From Limnochordia bacterium (lineage in GTDB: Bacteria; Bacillota; Limnochordia; Darwinibacteriales; Darwinibacteriaceae): a stretch of 64,000 bases of DNA. The stretch lies in NCBI GenBank assembly GCA_050952265.1, contig JBMNKP010000002.1:65112-129111 (forward strand), read 5' to 3'. Shown here one piece after another: positions 8,247 to 44,755 of the stretch (position 1 is the stretch's first letter; each line of letters begins with the position of its first letter). A model generated the notes under the pieces. That model was not told the origin of the DNA and made no database searches. It was given only the letters and a program-made list of their open reading frames with translations. The translations under genes were made by a program, and so were the position numbers.

Positions 8247-9365
8247 ATGACTCTGTTGAACAAGACGAAGGATCAACCTGAGTTTGCGGATAATGGCGGG
8301 GCACTGCGTTCGCCTTGGAAGATGGCCTGGAAGAAACTGCGCCGGCACAAGCTGGCCCTGGCCGGCATGTGGGTGCTCATCCTCCTGCATATCTTTGCCA
8401 TATTCGCCGATTTCTTCGCACCCTACAGCGAGTTGACCACGGACCGCAGGCGGACCTATCATCCGCCGACGCGGGTGCACATTTTCCACGAGGGCAAGCT
8501 GGTCAGGCCTTTTGTCTACGCGTACAAGCGGGTGGACAGCTTGAGGAACATCTATGAAGAAGATACCTCCACCATGTACCCCATCTACTTCTTCGTACGC
8601 GGCGACAAGTATAACATCCTTGGGGTAGAGAGCGATCTGCGCCTGTTCGGCGTCGAAGAACCTGGAAAACTCTATCTGTTTGGCGCAGACCGTTACGGAC
8701 GGGATATTTTCTCCCGTCTGGCATACGGCGGTCGGCGTTCGCTGTTTATCGGCATCATCGGTCTGATCATCAGCCTATCCATCGGTTTGATCTACGGAGG
8801 GGTGTCTGGGTACTTCGGCGGCTGGGTTGACAACATCATGATGCGCATCGCCGAGATCATCATCTCGATTCCCAGTTTCTACCTGCTGTTGGCCCTCAGC
8901 GCAGTGCTGCCCACAAACATACCCTCGGACCAGCGGTTTATGCTGATCGTGGCCATTTTAGGCTTCATCAACTGGGCCGGTCTGGCAAGGGTGATCAGGG
9001 GCATGGTGCTGTCCATAGCCAAGACGGAGTTCGTGGCGGGAGCGGAAGCCATCGGTGCTTCTCAACCGCGCATCATCATCCGCCATATCCTGCCTAACAC
9101 CATGAGCTACGTGATCGTACACGCGACGCTGTCCATCCCCGGCTTCATCCTGTCGGAATCCGGGCTGAGCCTCATCGGGGTAGGAATCCAGCATCCGGTG
9201 GCCAGTTGGGGCAACATGCTCTCCGAGGCGCTGAACCTGTCGTCGCTGACGCGCTATCCGTGGCTTTTGGTACCGGGGTTTTTCATCTTCATAACTGTTC
9301 TTTCTTACAGCTTCTTCGGCGACGGCCTGCGTGATGCCCTGGACCCGAAAAGCCGGACGACGTAA
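8247..9365 (+). CDS. ABC transporter permease (OppC/DppC type with long N-terminal extension)
   Basis: The C-terminal two-thirds form an OppC-like permease core (IISIPSFYLLLALSAVL). The long N-terminal extension resembles YejE/SapC-type permeases. Confidence 0.85.
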   Translation: MTLLNKTKDQPEFADNGGALRSPWKMAWKKLRRHKLALAGMWVLILLHIFAIFADFFAPYSELTTDRRRTYHPPTRVHIFHEGKLVRPFVYAYKRVDSLRNIYEEDTSTMYPIYFFVRGDKYNILGVESDLRLFGVEEPGKLYLFGADRYGRDIFSRLAYGGRRSLFIGIIGLIISLSIGLIYGGVSGYFGGWVDNIMMRIAEIIISIPSFYLLLALSAVLPTNIPSDQRFMLIVAILGFINWAGLARVIRGMVLSIAKTEFVAGAEAIGASQPRIIIRHILPNTMSYVIVHATLSIPGFILSESGLSLIGVGIQHPVASWGNMLSEALNLSSLTRYPWLLVPGFFIFITVLSYSFFGDGLRDALDPKSRTT

Positions 9366-16253: not shown

Positions 16254-16817
16254 ATGACATATCGCGGCATTTACCTGCCGGTAGCCGCTTTGGTTTTCAT
16301 ACTGCTGCTGGCATCCGGCTTGTTTGGAAAGAACGTCTACGAACAGAGGAGGATTGTCCTGCCGCTCCAAAGCGAACTGCAGGAAGCACAGGGCGTGCAG
16401 AGCGCTAGCCTGCAGCGGGAGGCCCGTGGTAAGCTCGCAGTCTATCTGGAGCTGGATCCAGAAACGCCGCTCTCCATAACCTTAGCTGAGGTGCGGCGGA
16501 TCGCAGACCGTTTTGGCACCAACATCGCGGTTTACGTGCGCGACTCAGCTTCTCCTGAGCTGGTACGCATCTTTGAACGGGTGCAGCTCGCCGCGGAGGA
16601 AGCGATCATGACAGGTGAGTTCACCCTGCTTGAGGAGCGTGTTCAAACTTGGGCAGCCGCCGCAGGAGTGAGCTGTGAACTAGCCGTTGACCGGGACTTC
16701 ATTTATGTATCGCTGATCCATGGCCCCAGTGTCCTCTGGCGGGCCATCAGCCGCTCTCCTGGTGGGGAGGCAGCAGTATCTGTAGAAGGGGGTGCTTTAG
16801 CTTGGCGAAATGGATGA
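16254..16817 (+). CDS. Hypothetical membrane-anchored protein (single N-terminal TM)
   Basis: ATG 16254 follows GGGGAGAAGG. The stop overlaps the next start as ATGA. Confidence 0.5.
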   Translation: MTYRGIYLPVAALVFILLLASGLFGKNVYEQRRIVLPLQSELQEAQGVQSASLQREARGKLAVYLELDPETPLSITLAEVRRIADRFGTNIAVYVRDSASPELVRIFERVQLAAEEAIMTGEFTLLEERVQTWAAAAGVSCELAVDRDFIYVSLIHGPSVLWRAISRSPGGEAAVSVEGGALAWRNG

Positions 16818-27888: not shown

Positions 27889-28149
27889 ATGGAAGTATTG
27901 AAAGTGTCGGCACACTCCACCCCCAACAAAGTCGCCGGTGCACTCGCTGGGAAAGTTCGCGAAGAAGGCCGGGCGGAAATTCAAGCCATCGGCGCTGGTG
28001 CCTTGAACCAAGCGGTAAAAGCGGTGGCTATTGCCAGAGGTTTTGTGGCCCCTAGCGGAGTGGATTTAGTGTGCATTCCGGCATTCACCGACGTCATAAT
28101 CGACAACGAAGAACGAACTGCGATCAAACTAATTGTGGAACCAAGATAA
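27889..28149 (+). CDS. spoVS: Stage V sporulation protein S
   Basis: The 86-aa protein reads MEVLKVSAHSTPNKVAGALAG...IPAFTDVIIDNEERTAIKL. RBS AAGGAGG precedes it. Confidence 0.9.
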   Translation: MEVLKVSAHSTPNKVAGALAGKVREEGRAEIQAIGAGALNQAVKAVAIARGFVAPSGVDLVCIPAFTDVIIDNEERTAIKLIVEPR

Positions 28150-28228
28150 GGGCGCTAGCTGGAACGTGGGAGAAGAGCCTACCCTTTTGGGTGGGCTCGT
28201 TTCGATCTGGAGCAAAGGAGGCTGCGTG

Positions 28229-29164
28229 ATGTTCGTTTTTGACGCTCACATCGACACTCTTCTTCGTCTGCTTGGAAAGCGGGCGAATCTTCAGGAGGCG
28301 CAGGGCCATGTCAACCTAGCCCACCTTCAGGGCGGCCCAGGCGCGCAGTTCTTCGCCGTCTTCGTTGAACCGCGCTATTACCATGGACTAGCCATGCATC
28401 AGGCCGTGGAGATGATCGACCTTTTCTGGAAGATGCTGGAGGATCACCGCGAGGCCCTGGCCTTCGCAGGTTCAGCCGAGGACATCCGGCGGGCGAGATC
28501 TGAGGGCCGTTTTGCCTGCCTGTTGGCCATCGAAGGTGGCGAAGCCCTGGAAGGGAAGCTCTCTTCGCTGCGCATGTTCTACCGGCTGGGAGTGCGCCTT
28601 TTGACCCTGACCTGGAACTTCCGGAACGAACTGGCAGCCGGCCAGATGGAAGGCCCAGAAGGAGGCGGGTTGAGCAGGTTCGGGCGGGAGGTAGTGGAGG
28701 AGATGAACCGGCTGGGCATGATCGTTGATGTCTCCCATCTCAACGAACCGGGCTTCTGGGATGTTCTGTCAGTCAGCCGGGATCCCGTTATGGCTTCCCA
28801 TTCCAATGCCAAGGCTTTGTGCCCCCATCCCAGGAACCTCACTGATGAACAGATCCGGGCTTTGGCCGATAAGGGCGGCGTGATCGGGGTGAACTTCTGT
28901 GCTGCGTTCGTGCGTGCGGATGGTCAGGCTACAGCCGAGCATGTCGCCGATCATATCGAATACCTGATCCGAGTTGGGGGCGAGGACTGTGCCGCCTTGG
29001 GTTCGGATTTCGACGGCATCGATGAGGTTCCTGTCGGCCTGGAGGACTACGGAAGAATCCGCACCCTGGTCGGTCTTCTGGAAAAGAGAGGTTTGAGGGA
29101 GGCTGTGATCGAAAAGGTGATGGGGGGCAATCTGCTGCGCTTCTGCCGCCAAGTCCTTGGTTAA
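28229..29164 (+). CDS. Membrane dipeptidase, peptidase family M19
   Basis: The translation has M19 motifs (FDAHIDTL, the HLNEPGF region, SHSNA). ATG 28229 follows AAGGAGG. Confidence 0.85.
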   Translation: MFVFDAHIDTLLRLLGKRANLQEAQGHVNLAHLQGGPGAQFFAVFVEPRYYHGLAMHQAVEMIDLFWKMLEDHREALAFAGSAEDIRRARSEGRFACLLAIEGGEALEGKLSSLRMFYRLGVRLLTLTWNFRNELAAGQMEGPEGGGLSRFGREVVEEMNRLGMIVDVSHLNEPGFWDVLSVSRDPVMASHSNAKALCPHPRNLTDEQIRALADKGGVIGVNFCAAFVRADGQATAEHVADHIEYLIRVGGEDCAALGSDFDGIDEVPVGLEDYGRIRTLVGLLEKRGLREAVIEKVMGGNLLRFCRQVLG

Positions 29165-29905: not shown

Positions 29906-31384
29906 ATGCAGAAGGATCGCTTTGCCGTTGCCAAGCAGCTGGAGGACAACCTGGCAGTGCTGGAAGAGGCCCTTGGCTATGGAGTGACCTTCGATTTGGT
30001 GTTCCGCAGGTTGAGGGTTGCGAACCGCCAGTCGTGCCTCGTCTTTTTTGATGGTTTCATCCAGGATGAAGCGGTAATTCACATTATCCGGGCACTGCAG
30101 ATGGTTCCGCGCCTGGGGGTTACCCTGACCGCGATCAAGCAGGACCTGTGCGATTGGATCCCCTACTTCGAACTGAGCATGGCAGATGACCTGGAAGCCG
30201 CCATCGACCAACTGCTCTCCGGGGCCATGCTCCTTTTGGTGGACGGGCTCCAGGAAGTGGCCATCCTCGATGTACGCCAGTATGTGGTCAGAAGCTCGGA
30301 GGAGCCAACTCTCGAAAAAGTGACCCGGGGCTCTCGGGACGGTTTTGTGGAGACGGCCCTGTTCAACGTCAACCTGATCCGCAGGCGGATCCGCGACCCA
30401 AACCTGCGCTTTGAGGCTCTTCAGGTGGGAAGACGATCAAAAACCGATGTCATCGTCGGTTATATCGAAGACGTAGCCGATCCCAGCTTGGTTCAAGAGG
30501 TGAAGGACCGTATTGGGGCCATCGACCGGGATGCCATCCCCATGGGGGGCAAAAACCTCGAAGAGTACATCCTCGGTACCGTCTTCAACCCCCTGCCCGT
30601 AACTCGCTACACCGAGCGTCCCGACGTTGCTGCAGCCCACCTTTTAGAGGGCCATGTGGTGATCATCGTGGATACCACTCCTTTCGCCTTAATAGTCCCT
30701 GTTACCCTCTGGCACTTCACCCAGCATGCTGAAGAGTATTTCCAGAACCCGCCGGTAGGGACCTATCTGCGCTGGGTCCGGACGGCTGGCATCGTGGGTT
30801 CGCTGGTGCTGCTGCCCCTGTGGTACATTTTGGCCGTGAGCCGCAATCTTCCGCCTTGGATCTCCTTCATCGGACCCAAGGAACCGGGACGCTTGGCCCT
30901 GTGGCTGCAGCTGCTCATGCTCGAGGTGGGCCTGGACCTGATCCGCATGGCCCTCATCCACACACCCGATGCCTTAGCTACTTCTCTTGGTATTGTTGGC
31001 GGTATCATACTTGGCGATCTGGCCGTGTCCATCGGCCTCTTTACGGCGGAAGCGATCCTGTATGCAGCGATCACCGCCATCTGCACCTTTGCCACACCCA
31101 GCATAGAGTTGAGCGGCGCTCTGCGCCTCTTTCGCTATGTACTATTCTTCGGAGCGGTTGTGGCGGGGTGGTGGGGCCTGGGTGCTGGCTTCCTCATCAC
31201 GTTCTTGACCATGGGCTTGACCAAATCCTTCGGCATCCCCTATCTGTGGCCCTTGGTGCCCTTTGACGGTCCCGCCATGCTCCGGGTGCTTCTGCGCTAT
31301 CCCATTCCGCGAGTGGCTGTGCGCCCGCGGCTCACGAAACCCCAGGATCTGCGTGCCCAAGCAAGAGACCGAAGGAGGAGGTAG
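29906..31384 (+). CDS. Orphan GerA-family spore germination protein (GerAA/SpoVAF-like)
   Basis: The GerA N-domain reads NVNLIRRRIRDPNLRF...TERPDVAAAHLLEGHVVIIVDTTPFALIVP and is followed by a C-terminal multi-TM domain. No B or C subunit genes are adjacent. Confidence 0.85.
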   Translation: MQKDRFAVAKQLEDNLAVLEEALGYGVTFDLVFRRLRVANRQSCLVFFDGFIQDEAVIHIIRALQMVPRLGVTLTAIKQDLCDWIPYFELSMADDLEAAIDQLLSGAMLLLVDGLQEVAILDVRQYVVRSSEEPTLEKVTRGSRDGFVETALFNVNLIRRRIRDPNLRFEALQVGRRSKTDVIVGYIEDVADPSLVQEVKDRIGAIDRDAIPMGGKNLEEYILGTVFNPLPVTRYTERPDVAAAHLLEGHVVIIVDTTPFALIVPVTLWHFTQHAEEYFQNPPVGTYLRWVRTAGIVGSLVLLPLWYILAVSRNLPPWISFIGPKEPGRLALWLQLLMLEVGLDLIRMALIHTPDALATSLGIVGGIILGDLAVSIGLFTAEAILYAAITAICTFATPSIELSGALRLFRYVLFFGAVVAGWWGLGAGFLITFLTMGLTKSFGIPYLWPLVPFDGPAMLRVLLRYPIPRVAVRPRLTKPQDLRAQARDRRRR

Positions 31385-31389
31385 CAGTT

Positions 31390-32301
31390 ATCAAGCCCAT
31401 CGGCATCCCACGCGCCCTGTACTTCTTCCAGTACGGCGAGCTTTGGCAGACATACCTTGCGGAACTCGGTTTCGCCGTAACCGTCAGCCCGCCGACGAAC
31501 CGCGAGATCCTCGAACTCGGCCTTGCGGCATGTGTGGAAAGCATCTGCCTGCCGGTCAAGGCCTTCGTCGGGCATGTCATCTTTCTGGTCCGGCATGGGC
31601 TGTCTCTGCTCCTTGTACCCCAGCTGATCAGTGTCTTCAGGCGGGAATGGACCTGTGCCAATCTCCTGGGGCTGCCAGATCTCGTCAGGCAGTATGTGTC
31701 CGAAGATGTGCGCTTGCTCACTCCCGTCTTGGATGCCCGGCGGAGGGTATCCCAGCACGCCTGGGCATACCTGCGTATGGGTCTGGAGTTCTCTCCTCCA
31801 GCACGCGTCCTGCGGGCATGGCAGAGGGCAAGGGATGCTCAGCAAGAATATGACGAGAGCCGGATCCCGCCAGCCCCTTCTCGAGGCGCTCTGCACGTGC
31901 TGCTCCTCGGTCCGCACTATGTGGCAGCGGATCCCTATCTCAACGGCAACCTTCGGGCGAAATTGGCCGAGTTGGGGGTCCAGGTCAGCATCGCGGCCGA
32001 CTTCCCTGAACCGCTCACGGCTGAAGGCTGTCGTTACTTGCGGAAGCGGCCATACTGGACCAACACCCGCAGGTCAATCGGGTCCCTGGAATACTGCCGG
32101 GATGCCATCGATGGGGTGATCAGCGCGGCTCCCTTTGGCTGCGGAGCCGAGGCTATGCAGAGTGTGCTCATTTCCAGCCATATATCGGAAGCACCCCTGC
32201 CGCACCTACAGCTCTTTGTGGACGAGCACAGTGGTACAGCTGGCCTGGAGACGCGCCTTGAGGCCTTTTGCGACCTTTTGGAGAGGAAAAGAAACGGATG
32301 A
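31390..32301 (+). CDS. DUF2229/HgdB-like CoA-enzyme-activase-associated protein (paralog 1), non-canonical start
   Basis: The conserved N-terminus IKPIGIPRALYFFQYGELW...CVESICLPVK and the C-terminus LFVDEHSGTAGLETRLEAFCDLL are present. No ATG/GTG/TTG exists in frame upstream of 31534. The candidate start is ATC 31390, 9 nt after AAGGAGGAGG. Confidence 0.55.
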   Translation: MKPIGIPRALYFFQYGELWQTYLAELGFAVTVSPPTNREILELGLAACVESICLPVKAFVGHVIFLVRHGLSLLLVPQLISVFRREWTCANLLGLPDLVRQYVSEDVRLLTPVLDARRRVSQHAWAYLRMGLEFSPPARVLRAWQRARDAQQEYDESRIPPAPSRGALHVLLLGPHYVAADPYLNGNLRAKLAELGVQVSIAADFPEPLTAEGCRYLRKRPYWTNTRRSIGSLEYCRDAIDGVISAAPFGCGAEAMQSVLISSHISEAPLPHLQLFVDEHSGTAGLETRLEAFCDLLERKRNG

Positions 32302-33413
32302 AGATCACCTTTCCACACCTGGGCAACCTCTACATAGCAGCGGAATCGCTGCTCAAGGGTTTGGGTCATGAACCGGTGACTCCGCCACCAACGAGCCGCA
32401 GAACACTGGAACTGGGAAGCTATCACAGCCCAGATGAGGTGTGCCTGCCCTTCAAGATCTCTTTAGGCAACATGCTGGAAGGTCTCGCCCAAGGGGCGGA
32501 CGGTGTGCTGATGATCGGCGGCTGGGGCCCGTGCCGTTTGGGTTACTACGCCGAGATCCAGCGGCTGATCCTGAAGGCCTTTGGGAAGCAGGTCGAGTTC
32601 ATCACCTTGGAGGTTCCCAGGGGGCGTTGGGGAGAGTACCTGGGGCGCTTCAGGACGCTGACGGCCTCGACAGATCTGCGCACCTTCTGGCAGGGAGCGC
32701 GCCTGAGCTGGGTCAAGCTGAAGGCGGTGGAGGAGCTTGAGCTGCATGCTGTAAGCGCCCAGCCGCGTGAAAAGAACGAAGGAACCGTTCGCCCCTATCT
32801 CCGGCGCCAGCTGGAGCTTTTGCGCACAGCACAGACCGTAGATGAGGTCCAGGAAATCTGCGATGCAGCCTCCCGCGGCTTCCGAGAACTACAGGCGCAC
32901 GATGCGGTCCGTCCGCTGCGTCTAGGACTGGTGGGGGAGATCTACACCGTGTTGGAGCCTTTTGCCAATCTTCGCCTGGAGGAGCGTCTGGGCAGTTTGG
33001 GCGTGGAGGTAGTGCGCACCATCAGCCTTGTGGAATGGGTGAGGAACCATATCTTCAAAAAGGCAGTGGGCCTGTACAGCCTCGCTCCTCTGCGCCGGCT
33101 GGCTGCGGGTTATCTGCGAGGGTTTATCGGTGGACATGGTCTGGAAAGCGTCGCACGGAGTGTGGCTCTTGCCAGGCAGAACCTCGATGGAATCGTTCAC
33201 ATTCTCCCTCTATCCTGCATGCCTGAGATCGTGGCCAGAGCCATCCTCCCGAGGATCAGCGAGGACCACGGTATCCCAGTGCTCTCCCTTATCGTAGATG
33301 AGCACACCGCGGAAGCCGGTTTTCAAACTCGGCTGGAGGCCTTTGTCGATTTGGTGCAGAGGAGAGTGGAGCGGTTTGAGGGACAGCGGCAGGCCCGTTT
33401 ATCTGGGAGTTGA
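32298..33413 (+). CDS. DUF2229/HgdB-like CoA-enzyme-activase-associated protein (paralog 2)
   Basis: MKITFPHLGNLY...EVCLPFK ... IVDEHTAEAGFQTRLEAFVDLV runs parallel to paralog 1. The ATG overlaps the upstream TGA. Confidence 0.65.
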   Translation: MKITFPHLGNLYIAAESLLKGLGHEPVTPPPTSRRTLELGSYHSPDEVCLPFKISLGNMLEGLAQGADGVLMIGGWGPCRLGYYAEIQRLILKAFGKQVEFITLEVPRGRWGEYLGRFRTLTASTDLRTFWQGARLSWVKLKAVEELELHAVSAQPREKNEGTVRPYLRRQLELLRTAQTVDEVQEICDAASRGFRELQAHDAVRPLRLGLVGEIYTVLEPFANLRLEERLGSLGVEVVRTISLVEWVRNHIFKKAVGLYSLAPLRRLAAGYLRGFIGGHGLESVARSVALARQNLDGIVHILPLSCMPEIVARAILPRISEDHGIPVLSLIVDEHTAEAGFQTRLEAFVDLVQRRVERFEGQRQARLSGS

Positions 33414-34365
33414 TGTGGGCAGTGTGAGCACGAACTTGGTGCTGCTCGATGCTGTGGAACCTCGCCCGTGCATCGTGTGGAAAGCGTACCTGCGTACCCA
33501 GGGCGCGCCCTTAACTGCCCTCAAGAACGGATTGGAGCTCCTTCATGATGCGGGAGCTTGGGAGATCTGCGGAGTGGGGACAACTGGCAGCGGTAGGGAA
33601 CTGGCAGGAGTGGTACTTGGGGCTGACGTGGTCAAAAACGAGATCACTGCCCACGCCTGCGCCGCTCTTGCCATTGACAGCGGAGTGTCCACGATTTTGG
33701 AAATCGGCGGACAGGATTCCAAGTTGATCATCCTGCGGGACGGAGTTGTCGTGGATTTTGCCATGAACACCGTCTGCGCTGCCGGCACTGGTTCCTTTTT
33801 GGACCAGCAGGCTTTCCGTTTGGGTGTTCCCATTGAGGACCTGGGCGAGCTGGCTCTGCGCAGCAGGAACCCCGTGCGTATCGCAGGACGCTGCACTGTC
33901 TTCGCCGAGTCAGACATGGTGCACAAACAACAGTTGGGGGTTGATACAGCCGACATCGTGGCCGGTTTGTGCGCAGCCATGGTGCGCAACTTCTTGGGAA
34001 GTCTAGCCAAAGGAAAAGAACTGCGCCCCACTGTGTTCTTCCAGGGAGGGGTGGCCGCCAATGCGGGCATGCGCCGTGCCTTTGAGGAAGCTCTGGGCCA
34101 GCCGGTTTTCGTGCCCGAACACTACGACGTGATGGGCGCTGTGGGGATCGCCCTGCTGGTCAGGGAAGCACTTGGAGGAAAGGCGGTGCCGACGCGTTTC
34201 GCCGGCTTAGAGAGGGTTCTGGACAGCCAAGTTGCCAGCCAGAGCTATGAGTGTACGGGATGCCCCAACTCCTGTGAGATCTGCGAGGTTTGGCGTGACG
34301 GGATATTCCTCGCGAGCTGGGGGGCGCGCTGCGGCAGGCAGGGCAGAACGGACCAGACCAGCTAG
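33376..34365 (+). CDS. BadF/BadG/BcrA/BcrD-type ATPase (HgdC-like activase of 2-hydroxyacyl-CoA dehydratase-type enzymes)
   Basis: The translation has the N-terminal YLGVDVGSVSTNLVLLD motif, the ASKT/acetate-kinase fold motifs EIGGQDSK and TGSF, and a C-terminal CTGCPNSCEIC cysteine cluster. The start is uncertain: TTG 33376 or an upstream ATG 33298. Confidence 0.8.
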   Translation: MRDSGRPVYLGVDVGSVSTNLVLLDAVEPRPCIVWKAYLRTQGAPLTALKNGLELLHDAGAWEICGVGTTGSGRELAGVVLGADVVKNEITAHACAALAIDSGVSTILEIGGQDSKLIILRDGVVVDFAMNTVCAAGTGSFLDQQAFRLGVPIEDLGELALRSRNPVRIAGRCTVFAESDMVHKQQLGVDTADIVAGLCAAMVRNFLGSLAKGKELRPTVFFQGGVAANAGMRRAFEEALGQPVFVPEHYDVMGAVGIALLVREALGGKAVPTRFAGLERVLDSQVASQSYECTGCPNSCEICEVWRDGIFLASWGARCGRQGRTDQTS

Positions 34366-34405: not shown

Positions 34406-34441
34406 TGCTACTATGAAATGGATAGATGGGAGGTCTGCCCA

Positions 34442-35059
34442 ATGCCAAGTCTCGAACAGATCATCCTTGGGGTACCAGCTATCCTCTTGGCCATATCCTT
34501 CCATGAACTCGGACACGGCTACGCCGCCTACAAGCTGGGCGATCCCACGCCCAAGCTGCAGGGGCGTCTGACTCTTAATCCCTTTGCCCATCTCGATCCT
34601 CTCGGGACGCTGATGCTGGTTCTCTTCCGCATCGGTTGGGCCAAGCCGGTGATGATCAACGCTCAGTACTTCAAGAACAGGCGTCAAGGAACACTCCTCG
34701 TTTCCCTTGCCGGTCCCCTGGCTAACGTCCTCTTGGGCTGGCTTTTTTACAACTTCGCGAGGCTCGCTGCGCCACGCCTGCCGTTTACAACCTTTTCCAG
34801 TACGCTGATGGTATTTCTTCTGATCAATGTTGAAGTTAACCTGGGACTGGCGGCCTTTAACTTGATCCCGATCCCGCCTCTGGATGGTTCCCACATTTTG
34901 GGAGGCCTTCTGCCTCCCAGGGCATCGTATCGGTTTTCCCAGCTGGCTCCTTACGGGCCGGTTCTCCTGGCTGTCCTGCTCATCTCCGGCGGGGCGAGGT
35001 GGATCATGAGTCCCATTTACCGCATCCTGTCGCAGCTTCTACTGCGCCTTTCGCTCTAG
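34442..35059 (+). CDS. Site-2 protease family (peptidase M50) membrane metalloprotease
   Basis: The zinc motif HELGHGYAA is embedded in a transmembrane segment, and the LDG motif NLIPIPPLDGSHIL is present. Confidence 0.75.
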   Translation: MPSLEQIILGVPAILLAISFHELGHGYAAYKLGDPTPKLQGRLTLNPFAHLDPLGTLMLVLFRIGWAKPVMINAQYFKNRRQGTLLVSLAGPLANVLLGWLFYNFARLAAPRLPFTTFSSTLMVFLLINVEVNLGLAAFNLIPIPPLDGSHILGGLLPPRASYRFSQLAPYGPVLLAVLLISGGARWIMSPIYRILSQLLLRLSL

Positions 35060-35068
35060 GTGGTACCC

Positions 35069-35809
35069 ATGGGGTACGTGGTTAGACTTGAGGTCTATCA
35101 GGGTCCATTCGATCTGCTTCTGGACTTGATCGCCAAGAACGAAGTGGACATCTGGGACATACCTATCGCGGCTATCACCGAGCAGTACCTGGAATACCTC
35201 TATTCCCTTCAGGAGAAGGATCTTGCGATTGCCGGCGAATTCCTGGTGATGGCCGCCACTTTGATCCGGCTCAAATCCAGACTGCTCCTGCCCCAGGATA
35301 CCCAGGCAGAGGTGGAGGAAGAGGAGTGCGTCGATCCCCGCACAGAGCTCGTGGAACAGCTTCTCCGCTACAAGTTCTTTAAAGAAGCAGCGGGGTTTCT
35401 GCAGGAACGCTATGGAGAGGCCGCACGTTTCTTCACCAAGGGGCAGCGAACCGAACTGGTCAACCTAATACCCATCTACACCCAGCCGGCCGGCGATCTT
35501 ACCCTGGACGACCTGCGGGAAGCCTATGAGCGTCTGCGGAGCGAAGAGGAAAAGGGCCAGGCTGTGCATGAAGTCCTGGCCAGGGTGTCCCTGCAGGAGC
35601 GGATTGCACTGGTACGCCTGCAGCTGGTGGGCAGGCCGCGGCTAAGTTTTCGCACCCTTTTGCGAGAATGCAGCCCTGGGGAAATCGTCGGGACGTTCCT
35701 AGCCGTATTGGAGCTTGTGCGTCTGGGCGAAATCCGGGTGGTGCAGCAGCGGTTGTTTGGGGAAATCAGCATCGAACCTTACACCTGGGAAGTGGAGGTC
35801 AACTCATGA
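35069..35809 (+). CDS. scpA: Segregation and condensation protein A
   Basis: The N-terminus LEVYQGPFDLLLDLI is the ScpA kleisin N-domain. Confidence 0.9.
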   Translation: MGYVVRLEVYQGPFDLLLDLIAKNEVDIWDIPIAAITEQYLEYLYSLQEKDLAIAGEFLVMAATLIRLKSRLLLPQDTQAEVEEEECVDPRTELVEQLLRYKFFKEAAGFLQERYGEAARFFTKGQRTELVNLIPIYTQPAGDLTLDDLREAYERLRSEEEKGQAVHEVLARVSLQERIALVRLQLVGRPRLSFRTLLRECSPGEIVGTFLAVLELVRLGEIRVVQQRLFGEISIEPYTWEVEVNS

Positions 35810-36315
35810 CGCTGGCAGAGGCAAGAGTGATCGTTGAAGGGCTGATCTTTGCTGCGGAGCGTCCCCTGAGCGCCAAGGAGATCGGGGAGATCATCGGGCT
35901 CGATCAGCCAGCAGTCGAAGCTCTGGTCGAGGAGATCCGCCGCCAGCACATGAGCGGGGCGCTGGCCATCAGGATGGTGGCGGGCGGCTACCAGATGGTG
36001 ACAAAACCAGAGCTGGCTCCATGGATTGAGAAACTCGGCAGGCCAGTTGTGCATGCTCCGCTGTCTGCGGCGGCCACCGAAACACTGGCAATTATCGCCT
36101 ATGAGCAGCCGATCACCAGGGCTGAGATCGAACAGATCCGCGGTGTGCGCTCCGACAGCGCCCTAACGAACCTGCTGGATCGGGGGTTGATCTGTGAGGT
36201 CGGCCGCAAAGAAGGGCCAGGCAGGCCGATCCTTTACGGCGTGACAGACAAGTTCCTGGAGCATTTCGGTCTGCGCAGTATCGAGGAGCTGCCCTTGAAG
36301 AGCATAGGTCAGTAG
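35806..36315 (+). CDS. scpB: Segregation and condensation protein B
   Basis: The ATG overlaps the scpA TGA. Two winged-helix repeats are present (GLIFAAERPLS and IAYEQPITRAEIEQIRGV). Confidence 0.9.
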   Translation: MTLAEARVIVEGLIFAAERPLSAKEIGEIIGLDQPAVEALVEEIRRQHMSGALAIRMVAGGYQMVTKPELAPWIEKLGRPVVHAPLSAAATETLAIIAYEQPITRAEIEQIRGVRSDSALTNLLDRGLICEVGRKEGPGRPILYGVTDKFLEHFGLRSIEELPLKSIGQ

Positions 36316-43679: not shown

Positions 43680-44755
43680 GACGTTGCTCGCGCAAAGCTG
43701 CAGTACTCATCCTCCTTGGGGTGCTCGCCCTATCCCAAGCGGCCTCTGCCGATGAACGCCGGGACGGAGGTTTCTTCACCTTGTTGGACGACGAAGGCGA
43801 AGCGATCACCATGACAGCCCGGGAACTGGATCCCGGCGACAGGTACATAGCAGCCGATAACCGCCTTTTTGAAGTGGTCCAGACAGAAGGCGATACGGTA
43901 CGGGTGCGCTACCTGGAGACGGTTGTCCTGCCGGAGATCGGGGAGGAACTGCTCAGGGCTGAAGTGGCCCAGGCCGCGCAGGCCTCGGGAGTGGTGGGCA
44001 TCTACCACACCCACAACGACGAATCCTATGTGCCCACGAGCGGTACTGAATCCCGCGATGATGGCAGGGGGGATGTCCTGCGCGTCGGAAAAGCCTTGGC
44101 TAGCGCGCTGGAAGCGCAGGGACTCACCGTTCATTGGTCAGACAACAGCCACATCCCCCACGACGGGCAGGCCTATGTGCGCTCGCGGCGCACTGCGGTT
44201 GAGCTGCTGAAGGAGCAGCCCGACACCCTGATCGATGTCCACCGGGACGCGACACCCCCCGAGGTATATGAAGCCGAGGTAAACGGCGAACCGGTCACCA
44301 AGGTGCGCATCGTGGTGGGCAGGCAGAACCAGAACCGGGAGGCAAACCTGGAGTACGCCAAGCGCCTCAAAGCAGTGGCCGACAAGCTCTACCCCGGGAT
44401 CGTTGAGGGGATCTTCGATGCCAAAGGGAACTATAACCAAGACCTGGGACCGAAGACCATCCTTCTGGAGTTTGGCGCCCACACCAACCGCTTGGATCAC
44501 GCGGAGCAGGCGGCCGAATTCTTTGCCAAGGTCATTCCGGCTGCGGCCGGGCTTACCACGGGCAGCAGACAGCAGGCTGAAGAACAGATCGGGGGAGGAG
44601 CGAGCCGCTCCCTCCTCTGGACGGTCCTCATTGCCGGAGGATTGGGCGCCGCTTTTCTTCTGATCAAGCAGGGAAGGATCGGTACTCTGGCAGGGTTTTT
44701 CCGCCGGGAGGCGGGATTGGCCGAGAGAGATCACGATTCGGACGACGAACAATGA
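43676..44755 (+). CDS. spoIIP: Stage II sporulation protein P
   Basis: A signal anchor is followed by the SpoIIP core (GIYHTHNDESY, IDVHRD, LLEFGAHTN) and a C-terminal transmembrane segment. Confidence 0.85.
   Translation: MRRCSRKAAVLILLGVLALSQAASADERRDGGFFTLLDDEGEAITMTARELDPGDRYIAADNRLFEVVQTEGDTVRVRYLETVVLPEIGEELLRAEVAQAAQASGVVGIYHTHNDESYVPTSGTESRDDGRGDVLRVGKALASALEAQGLTVHWSDNSHIPHDGQAYVRSRRTAVELLKEQPDTLIDVHRDATPPEVYEAEVNGEPVTKVRIVVGRQNQNREANLEYAKRLKAVADKLYPGIVEGIFDAKGNYNQDLGPKTILLEFGAHTNRLDHAEQAAEFFAKVIPAAAGLTTGSRQQAEEQIGGGASRSLLWTVLIAGGLGAAFLLIKQGRIGTLAGFFRREAGLAERDHDSDDEQ

Follow-up and report, generated by a model that had tools for sequence, protein, structure and literature searches.

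Where does translation begin in a gene whose conserved amino terminus is encoded upstream of the first canonical start codon in its reading frame? This question is raised by a DUF2229 gene, termed DUF2229-A here, in a 64-kb stretch of DNA from a Limnochordia bacterium (the window, meaning the whole 64,000 nucleotides analyzed). Conserved starts other than AUG, GUG or UUG are few in bacteria: infC and pcnB are confirmed in E. coli, and a handful have recently been mapped in S. aureus and B. subtilis. A sequence-only reading of the window had proposed for DUF2229-A either a rare AUC start codon or a sequencing or assembly lesion. Comparison with orthologous loci suggests that DUF2229-A is functional and that its translation very probably begins at AUC 31390. 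The features of the locus are collected in Table 1.

Table 1. Features of the DUF2229-A locus, in window coordinates.
Feature	Position	Strand	Basis
GerA-family (possibly SpoVAF-like) membrane protein gene	29906..31384	+	Pfam GerA E=8.6e-143; ORF and translation
In-frame TGA opening the DUF2229-A frame	31264..31266	+	Codon-by-codon frame check
Extended Shine-Dalgarno (SD) sequence AAGGAGGAGGT	31372..31382	+	Duplex with generic Bacillota 16S 3' end
ATC, inferred initiation codon of DUF2229-A	31390..31392	+	SD spacing; aligned codon in orthologues
DUF2229-A CDS, 303 aa plus stop	31390..32301	+	Pfam PF09989, AF2 model, Foldseek
GTG, first canonical in-frame codon; spurious start taken by ORF callers	31534..31536	+	Without SD
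DUF2229-B / HGD-D-like paralog	32298..33413	+	Pfam matches; ATG overlaps the TGA of DUF2229-A
BcrAD_BadFG activase-type ATPase	33376..34365	+	Pfam PF01869, TIGR00241

The DUF2229-A frame is open from the TGA at 31264-31266 and is closed by the TGA at 32299-32301. As the sequence-only reading had stated, no ATG, GTG or TTG occurs in the 89 codons that follow the first of these stops, and the GTG at 31534 that ends the run lies within the conserved segment ...LAACVESICLP, where it is codon 49 of the ATC-started protein. In neighboring genes, 5-10% of in-frame codons are of start type, and for an 89-codon run to lack a canonical start by chance alone is just mildly improbable. Judged from the orthologues, it is the retention of the codon and its context that goes beyond chance, not the start-free run itself.

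The neighboring genes are closely packed around this frame. Synteny of the upstream GerA-family gene holds across all close loci (71-88% identity); its product scores far below the GerXA cut-off in an NCBIfam search, which leaves its SpoVAF identity tentative. The stop codon of this gene, TAG 31382-31384, falls between the SD and the ATC, 5 nt before the latter, an arrangement that had been recognized from the window sequence. Downstream, DUF2229-B (here B, with DUF2229-A as A) starts at ATG 32298, which overlaps the DUF2229-A stop as ATGA, and this junction is kept in nearly all loci that carry ATC or ATT (ATY) at the inferred start. The B product begins MKITFPHL, and the likeness that had been drawn between this sequence and MKPIGIPRAL, the amino terminus of A if its ATC is read as Met, is correct. 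For the activase gene, the longest ORF begins at ATG 33298, with an SD duplex of -3.6 kcal/mol, versus -13.1 kcal/mol for TTG 33376, the likely start.

A strong ribosome-binding site had been placed at 31372-31380, 9 nt before the ATC. Its strength holds up on analysis, and its coordinates need correction: AAGGAGGAGG spans 31372-31381, leaving 8 nt between its last G and ATC 31390. If the following T is included, pairing reaches 31382-31384 and the spacer becomes about 6-7 nt. The duplex is worth -14.0 kcal/mol against a generic Bacillota 16S 3' end. This SD is among the strongest ~20% of those of 66 window genes and is no outlier; the idea that it is uniquely strong was rejected. No near-cognate codon other than the ATC at 31390 lies at SD spacing; this one differs from AUG at the third base only and sits at a functional SD distance. 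A conserved RNA structure that might mask or present the start was also considered and rejected: RNAalifold yields none around the start (-0.12 kcal/mol), and the start region of the window folds no better than shuffled sequences (z = 0.2).

Orthologous loci provide the most telling evidence on the identity of the start codon. Seven distinct lineages have ATC as the aligned codon and 17 more have ATT; in all 24 this codon is preceded at about 8 nt by an SD of 8-10 bp, with duplex energies of -12 to -18 kcal/mol in every ATY orthologue. These lineages, all represented by uncultured MAGs, share 46-62% protein identity for A and form one clade in a neighbor-joining tree of the A protein. In outgroups, the same codon is ATG (L017, L019 and L020) or TTG (L018 and L021). 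Thus, orthologues with canonical starts begin at the codon equivalent to 31390, which is the comparison that the sequence-only reading had called for. That ATC or ATT is kept at the same position in about two dozen relatives argues that AUC/AUU is a conserved weak start signal and not a sequencing error. ATT is the commoner form in the clade, AUC being found in the subclade of the window and AUU in the rest. Both the clade-wide conservation and the predominance of ATT lie beyond what could be seen from the window sequence itself.

This conservation does not amount to an absolute requirement for a weak start. In five clade members a canonical codon has arisen at the site or close by: GTG at position 0 in L127, GTG at -1 in L004, ATG at +1 in L128, and, with the ATC kept, TTG at +1 in L125 and GTG at -2 in L124. 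The clade can thus do without the weak start. In 17 of 17 sampled sequences only T or C occupies the third position of the start codon, yet at the nearby four-fold sites of Gly5 and Ala9 each of the four bases occurs somewhere in the clade. A third base restricted to T or C nonetheless resembles an ordinary isoleucine codon, and so is by itself no proof of selection against ATG.

Start sites upstream of the ATY codon can be set aside. The window has no upstream canonical start. In L016, L050 and L130, the in-frame GTG or ATG chosen by gene callers 18-36 nt upstream sits inside the upstream gene or the SD and lacks its own SD. An in-frame stop precedes the ATY codon by 3 nt in L012 and by 9 nt in L129, L131 and L135, and none of the codons between these four stops and ATY is near-cognate. 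Moreover, the GerA-family ORF and A stand in relative frame 0, 1 or 2 depending on the locus, which excludes both upstream starts and recoding fusions. Sequence comparison here thus establishes the codon together with its SD context, shows that it is conserved, and excludes other starts.

Pfam DUF2229 (PF09989) matches residues 4-200 of the ATC-started A protein with 130.8 bits (cut-off 29.4), and since the match starts at residue 4, corresponding to profile position 2, the conserved domain begins at the ATC codon. B also scores above the 29.4-bit cut-off for PF09989 (37.0 bits), both proteins have a weak match to PF06050 (HGD-D) as well, and an NCBIfam search found no specific family for either. 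The AF2 model of A has a pLDDT of 88.3 and a pTM of 0.86, with residues 1-48 forming a beta1-alpha1-alpha2-beta2-alpha3 segment at pLDDT 87-97. Foldseek matches this model to 7yyl, 6eno, 3o3m, 8s02 and 9g87 with probability 1.0, E values of 9e-9 to 1e-4 and TMq of 0.46-0.62, at a sequence identity of 10-14% to the solved structures. These matches include DCCP (7yyl and 6eno), HadBC (3o3m) and BzdNO (8s02). Presumably, A and B pair as the two subunits of one catalytic component belonging to the benzoyl-CoA reductase / 2-hydroxyacyl-CoA dehydratase / double-cubane-cluster superfamily, which the activase ATPase encoded downstream would serve.

Several other explanations for the missing start codon must be weighed against initiation at AUC. 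A sequencing or assembly error hiding a genuine ATG draws its appeal from the prior alone, as very few ATC starts are found in annotated genomes. However, an independent metagenome contig (L043) with 3 mismatches in 1796 nt carries the identical ATC in the same context, and the aligned codon reads ATC or ATT in 23 further lineages, of which many are covered by two assemblies; for eight other species the two assemblies are independent and agree on the same ATY codon. The lesion proposed as the second option of the sequence-only reading is thus exceedingly improbable. Equally hard to credit is the suggestion that A is a decaying pseudogene that has lost its start codon. The gene does diverge faster than others at the same loci (46-62% versus 63-88% identity), but every lineage retains an intact frame of 303 codons, and no frame-disrupting mutations were seen in close relatives. 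Among 37 sequences, 37 residues of A are invariant, including Cys53, Cys89 and Cys251, and the confident fold model and the retained SD and spacing likewise speak against decay. Recoding would dispense with a start codon altogether, a programmed frameshift or stop read-through producing a GerA-DUF2229 fusion. The A frame is indeed open for 123 nt upstream of the ATC, overlapping the end of the GerA-family ORF, and A-runs occur near the SD in some orthologues. Against this stand the variable relative frame of the two ORFs and the in-frame stops located 3, 9 or 21 nt before ATY in seven loci, and neither a conserved slippery site nor a conserved RNA structure was found across loci; such a fusion has next to no chance of being correct.

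The start that gene callers annotate, GTG 31534, is the first canonical in-frame codon and is the one used for a database protein (P0001), which is thus a truncated call. Under this explanation, the conserved segment upstream would be left untranslated. The predicted 255-aa product would lack the beta1-alpha1-alpha2-beta2-alpha3 segment, and with it the first beta-alpha-beta unit of the modelled fold. The GTG itself has no SD (duplex -1.7 kcal/mol), and the 48 codons upstream of it are conserved as protein in at least 40 orthologues, including all those with canonical starts. Orthologues that start at the equivalent of 31534 and lack the upstream segment, whose existence would have favored the GTG, did not emerge; instead, the position of the first canonical codon differs from one orthologue to the next, 27-159 nt downstream. 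A start at GTG 31534 is accordingly very unlikely. A final alternative concerns the route by which ribosomes reach the AUY codon. By termination-reinitiation, ribosomes fresh from termination on the GerA-family ORF would be the sole or main users of AUY; the SD would tether the post-termination ribosome, which would slide 1-6 nt to AUY, and synthesis of A would keep a constant ratio to that of the upstream protein rather than proceed via free 30S subunits. The upstream TAG inside the SD-start spacer of the window fits this route, as does a stop-to-ATY gap of 1 nt in 14 loci and of 4-6 nt in 11. The same arrangement of stop and start occurs in outgroups with canonical starts, which suggests that coupling is probably ancestral. 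Re-initiation is also known to require initiator tRNA and to be sensitive to IF3 (PMC2268962), in keeping with this route. On the other hand, the gap measures 14-22 nt in three loci (L010, L012 and L130) that nonetheless keep ATT and a full SD, and a conserved SD of 8-10 bp at optimal spacing is a requirement of de novo initiation. Exclusive or predominant reinitiation is possible, though somewhat unlikely, and it would be a sub-mechanism of initiation at AUC without contradicting it.

Initiation at AUC would probably proceed as follows. The long SD AAGGAGGAGGU would pair with the 3' end of 16S rRNA and place the AUC in the P site, where initiator fMet-tRNA would read it with a third-position mismatch, giving A the amino terminus (f)Met-Lys-Pro-Ile-Gly-Ile-Pro-Arg. 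With the start only 1-6 nt from the upstream stop, coupling to the GerA-family gene may aid initiation. IF3 would be expected to discriminate against AUY, and a weak, IF3-disfavored start would throttle the synthesis of A. Because B starts within the ATGA overlap with the A stop, the throttle should limit B too, resulting in low output of the pair. The AUC start thus probably throttles the A/B pair, with decoding by fMet, lower efficiency, IF3 sensitivity and coupling of B to A all being drawn from established knowledge.

Reported systems give an indication of how strong such an effect could be. In E. coli, AUA, AUC, AUU and CUG starts operate at ~0.1-3% of the AUG level (bioRxiv 10.1101/063800), and in S. 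aureus the conserved AUU/AUA starts of infC, cvfC1 and ccpN, which have extended SDs, reach ~10% (PMC13009471). The near-cognate starts of infC (AUU/AUA) and of E. coli pcnB (AUU) are conserved among orthologues and lower the yield, and that of infC makes expression IF3-sensitive (bioRxiv 10.1101/063800; PMC13009471). By its sequence features, the DUF2229-A start joins infC, pcnB, ccpN and cvfC1 as a member of this known kind. Like those of infC and pcnB, it would be a near-cognate start differing at the third base, read by initiator tRNA and conserved among orthologues; unlike them, it belongs to an unrelated gene family, is AUC in the subclade of the window, and offers no grounds for supposing that the gene product regulates its own synthesis. 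Within Bacillota, there is a likeness to ccpN (AUA; S. aureus and B. subtilis) and staphylococcal cvfC1 (AUU), in which an AUH codon is combined with a long, well-spaced SD and conserved across species. However, those starts were mapped by Ribo-Ret and reporters, whereas that of DUF2229-A is predicted from comparative sequence and is internal to an operon, next to an upstream stop. Our literature search found no paper on the start codon of the DUF2229-A gene and no validated native AUC start for a full-length bacterial protein, the sole AUC case being a weakly translated AUC-initiated uORF in Sinorhizobium.

The enzymes that A and B resemble offer a second comparison. As in the HgdAB, HadBC, BcrBC and DCCP systems and in PlsA/Ger, A and B combine PF09989 with a weak PF06050 match, an activase ATPase is encoded after them, and the fold of A is similar. 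In the ether-lipid enzyme Ger/PlsA, DUF2229 has been described as the 'reduction domain' (PMC13159169). That enzyme is a BBDH(D/H)n fusion acting in lipid ester reduction, whereas three separate small genes without this architecture are present here, and the link to PlsA/Ger would be one of resemblance only. Linkage to a GerA-family sporulation/germination gene is undescribed for any of these systems.

The non-canonical start appears to be particular to this gene within the window. We scanned all 176 long open frames in the 64 kb for an SD with ATY or CTG upstream of the first canonical start, an initial approach by codon counts having been too noisy for use, and found no gene besides DUF2229-A that needs a non-canonical start. 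Three candidates were dropped: for a YIEGIA gene at 44716 the canonical start covers the Pfam domain, for an AAA/M41 protease gene at 16778 the canonical start is 8 codons downstream and well before the first Pfam domain, and a minus-strand frame at 8705 is a shadow ORF. Since the scan gave only dispensable candidates, genome-wide relaxation of start choice was rejected.

One practical consequence is that gene finders routinely miss the ATY start of this gene. Among the 36 closest database proteins, 20 are mis-called, 17 being truncated by ~24-53 residues and 3 extended through the SD. Alignments and models of the DUF2229 family therefore inherit wrong amino termini for these bacteria, which are abundant in anaerobic digesters. 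The locus also adds a deep, clade-wide non-canonical start that includes AUC, the least documented near-cognate codon, and is suited to asking in what way a weak start is rescued by a long SD, how IF3 tells AUC from AUU, and whether re-initiation close to a stop relaxes codon choice. A further proposal, which we regard as rather unlikely, is that the AUY start is an actively maintained regulatory device rather than just a weak start that is tolerated, making a putative Fe-S reductase pair (A and the ATGA-coupled B) dependent either on IF3 activity being low or on termination of the GerA-family (possibly SpoVAF-like) ORF. If true, no better comparative case for native AUC initiation of a full-length bacterial protein would be known to date, and a regulatory AUY would tie enzyme dosage to a sporulation or germination program across a whole order-to-class-level Bacillota clade (Limnochordia-like).

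DUF2229-A, the first of two adjacent DUF2229 genes, very probably begins translation at the AUC codon at 31390, as judged from comparative sequence evidence (...cgAAGGAGGAGGTAGcagttATCAAGCCCATCGGCATCCCACGC...). A codon check of the window confirmed the sequence-only reading that the frame lacks a canonical start before GTG 31534: the start-type codons preceding it are all near-cognates, of which ATC 31390 comes first. The product from ATC is 303 aa long, and its Pfam DUF2229 match (residues 4-200, 130.8 bits) starts at profile position 2. That reading was also right that the GerA-family stop codon (TAG 31382-31384) falls between the Shine-Dalgarno sequence (SD) and ATC, and that the downstream paralog, B, begins MKITFPHL. 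The ribosome-binding site it described is present, but its end coordinate and spacer length were wrong through a one-base slip. Because DUF2229-A has no canonical start, a naive longest-ORF picker takes an antisense ORF instead.

Features at the DUF2229-A locus, in window coordinates
Feature	Position	Strand	Remarks
GerA-family ORF, upstream	29906-31384	+	492 aa, Pfam E=8.6e-143
Frame of ATC 31390	opens after TGA 31264-31266, closes TGA 32299-32301	+	
B, DUF2229/HGD-D paralog	ATG 32298	+	ATGA overlap with DUF2229-A stop
BcrAD_BadFG activase ATPase gene	next after B	+	
Antisense shadow ORF	31297-31917	-	206 aa, spans 5' part of DUF2229-A

Orthologous DNA was drawn from GTDB species representatives (42 loci), metagenomes (80 loci) and contigs encoding individual matches, with each locus anchored on the invariant G-I/V-P-R motif to align the start codon. 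The rare AUC start proposed earlier is supported by ATC or ATT (ATY) at the homologous codon in 24 distinct lineages and a canonical codon in the outgroups. ATC occurs in seven (the window, equivalent to L043; L001, L002, L003, L005, L014 and L129) and ATT in 17 (L006-L013, L015, L016, L050 and L130-L135), with proteins 46-62% identical to that of the window; for eight of the ATY species, two independent assemblies each carry the same codon. A neighbor-joining tree of the protein places all ATY sequences in one clade, where ATT is the widespread state and ATC is that of the window's subclade, plus L014. The comparison of orthologues at 31390 suggested by the sequence-only reading turned up ATG at exactly this codon in the nearest outgroups L017, L019 and L020, and TTG in L018 and L021; farther relatives have ATG, GTG or TTG at most 1-2 codons from the aligned site. 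Every ATY case has an SD of 8-10 bp (-12 to -18 kcal/mol, computed against a Bacillota 16S 3' end) ending ~6-8 nt upstream of the codon. In-frame canonical codons first appear 27-159 nt downstream, at a position that differs per lineage and falls within the conserved GIPRALYYF... region. One clade member, L012, is Ca. Darwinibacter acetoxidans (class Limnochordia, order DTU010; PMC12663870), and the remainder are mostly anaerobic-digester MAGs.

In five clade members a canonical codon has arisen at the site or next to it. L004 has GTG at -1 and has lost the ATY, L127 has GTG at 0 and L128 has ATG at +1, while L125 and L124 retain ATC alongside TTG at +1 and GTG at -2, respectively. L124 (Logan SRR19568451) differs from L001 by a strain-level polymorphism, GCG to GTG, two codons upstream of ATC; the gene caller adopts this GTG, which is only 2 nt past GGAGG and thus probably too close to it. 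Near the start, all four bases occur across the clade at the four-fold sites of Gly5 and Ala9, so third positions have turned over, and the third base of the start codon is T or C in 17/17 sampled sequences. This pattern fits a retained weak start and is suggestive only, since an ordinary Ile codon shows T/C too.

We scanned 176 long open frames of the 64-kb window for an ATY or CTG codon that follows an SD and precedes any canonical start, and only DUF2229-A requires a non-canonical start. Its SD ranks in the strongest ~20% among 66 window genes, and is therefore strong, not unique. Three other candidates were discarded. The ATT at 44716 in the YIEGIA gene is unnecessary, as the canonical start 44752, 12 codons farther on and overlapping the stop of the preceding gene (ORF end 44755), covers the Pfam domain; an AAA/M41 protease gene has a canonical start 8 codons downstream and its first Pfam domain only at residue 117; and a minus-strand candidate was a shadow ORF.

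An AlphaFold2 model built on a 37-sequence alignment (pLDDT 88.3, pTM 0.86) places residues 1-48 in beta1 (2-6), two helices, beta2 (28-32) and helix 3, with pLDDT 87-97. The model matches DCCP (7yyl, 6eno), 2-hydroxyisocaproyl-CoA dehydratase (3o3m) and BzdNO (8s02) at probability 1.0, and 37 residues are invariant, including three cysteines. By its predicted fold, DUF2229-A is a bona fide member of this superfamily, and we reject the idea that it is a pseudogene. Only four papers in the searched library mention DUF2229, and in one of them (PMC13159169) it is called the "reduction domain" of Ger/PlsA, an ether-lipid enzyme. Across L001-L021, DUF2229-A evolves far more quickly, at 46-62% identity, than the genes beside it in the operon (GerA-family 71-88%, B 50-73%, ATPase 63-78%).

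The 255-aa product from GTG 31534 is what the closest database protein, P0001 (99% identical), represents; it would lack the modelled unit of residues 1-48, and GTG 31534 is without an SD (-1.7 kcal/mol versus -14.0 for ATC 31390), which makes this start very unlikely. The contig encoding P0001 (L043, JGI metagenome 3300010338) mismatches the window at 3/1796 nt and has an identical AAGGAGGAGGTAGCAGTT-ATC context. The sequencing or assembly lesion entertained earlier is therefore rejected on this independent sequence. Fusion to the GerA-family ORF by frameshift or read-through is likewise rejected, because the relative frame of the two ORFs is 0, 1 or 2 depending on locus and one fixed event cannot serve all. 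In-frame stops lie 3 nt upstream of ATY in L012 (TAA-ATT), 9 nt in L129, L131 and L135, and 21 nt in L001, L124 and L005, with no near-cognate codon between. RNAalifold detected no conserved structure at the start, and the window segment folds like shuffles (z = 0.2). In the window only, GGAGGAGGUA of the SD segment (31377-31386) can pair with UACUUCUUCC (31420-31430, codons for YFFQ), but shuffled sequences fold equally well (z = 0.2), and orthologues do not conserve the pairing.

Termination-reinitiation from the GerA-family ORF may contribute to initiation at AUY, and re-initiation is IF3-sensitive too (PMC2268962). The gap from the upstream stop to ATY is 1 nt in 14 loci, 4-6 nt in 11 and 14-22 nt in three. 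The stop-in-spacer arrangement is common to the canonical-start outgroups and is thus older than the ATY switch. The three loci with the longest gaps retain ATT together with a complete SD, which leaves no demonstrable need for coupling. At the AUY start itself, initiator fMet-tRNA would read the codon via a third-base mismatch, against which IF3 would be expected to discriminate.

Gene order (GerA-family, DUF2229-A, B, ATPase) is the same in all close loci, outgroups included; everywhere in this Bacillota group the GerA-family gene keeps its tight linkage to the triad. The GerA-family protein scores 206 bits, far below the NCBIfam GerXA cut-off of 850. In the flanking regions (28133-29164 and 34418-36315), an M19 dipeptidase gene lies upstream, and an M50-like peptidase gene and two ORFs, putative scpA and scpB by position and size, lie downstream; the location of the GerA-family gene near the latter two is reminiscent of B. 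subtilis spoVAF, of which it may be a counterpart. Taken together with the YIEGIA gene and the GerA-family gene, this set of neighbours points to a spore-former of the Bacillota, with a genome of ~57.5% GC. The longest activase ATPase ORF, from ATG 33298, overlaps B by 116 nt and nearly lacks an SD (-3.6 kcal/mol); TTG 33376 is the likelier start, since a good SD (-13.1 kcal/mol) precedes it at a 6-nt spacing and the matches of several orthologues begin close by.

In the library searched, no paper deals with the start of this gene, and none reports that a full-length bacterial protein natively starts at a validated AUC. Among the 36 best protein matches, 17 are N-terminally truncated calls and three more extend through the SD (P0010, ...REVVSIRQIG; P0015; P0018), so the same start problem is suspected in other genomes. 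This systematic mis-annotation is one added point of interest, and the AUC variant is the other. DUF2229-A behaves like the infC, pcnB, ccpN and cvfC1 class of conserved non-canonical starts, whose sequence-level defining features it shares; in S. aureus, the conserved AUU/AUA starts of cvfC1, ccpN and infC come with extended SDs (PMC13009471). Relative to AUG, the yield of such near-cognate codons is ~0.1-3% in E. coli (bioRxiv 10.1101/063800) and ~10% in S. aureus (PMC13009471). The ATGA junction is kept in nearly all ATY loci, and the most likely function of AUY is translational attenuation of DUF2229-A and, via ATGA coupling, of B.
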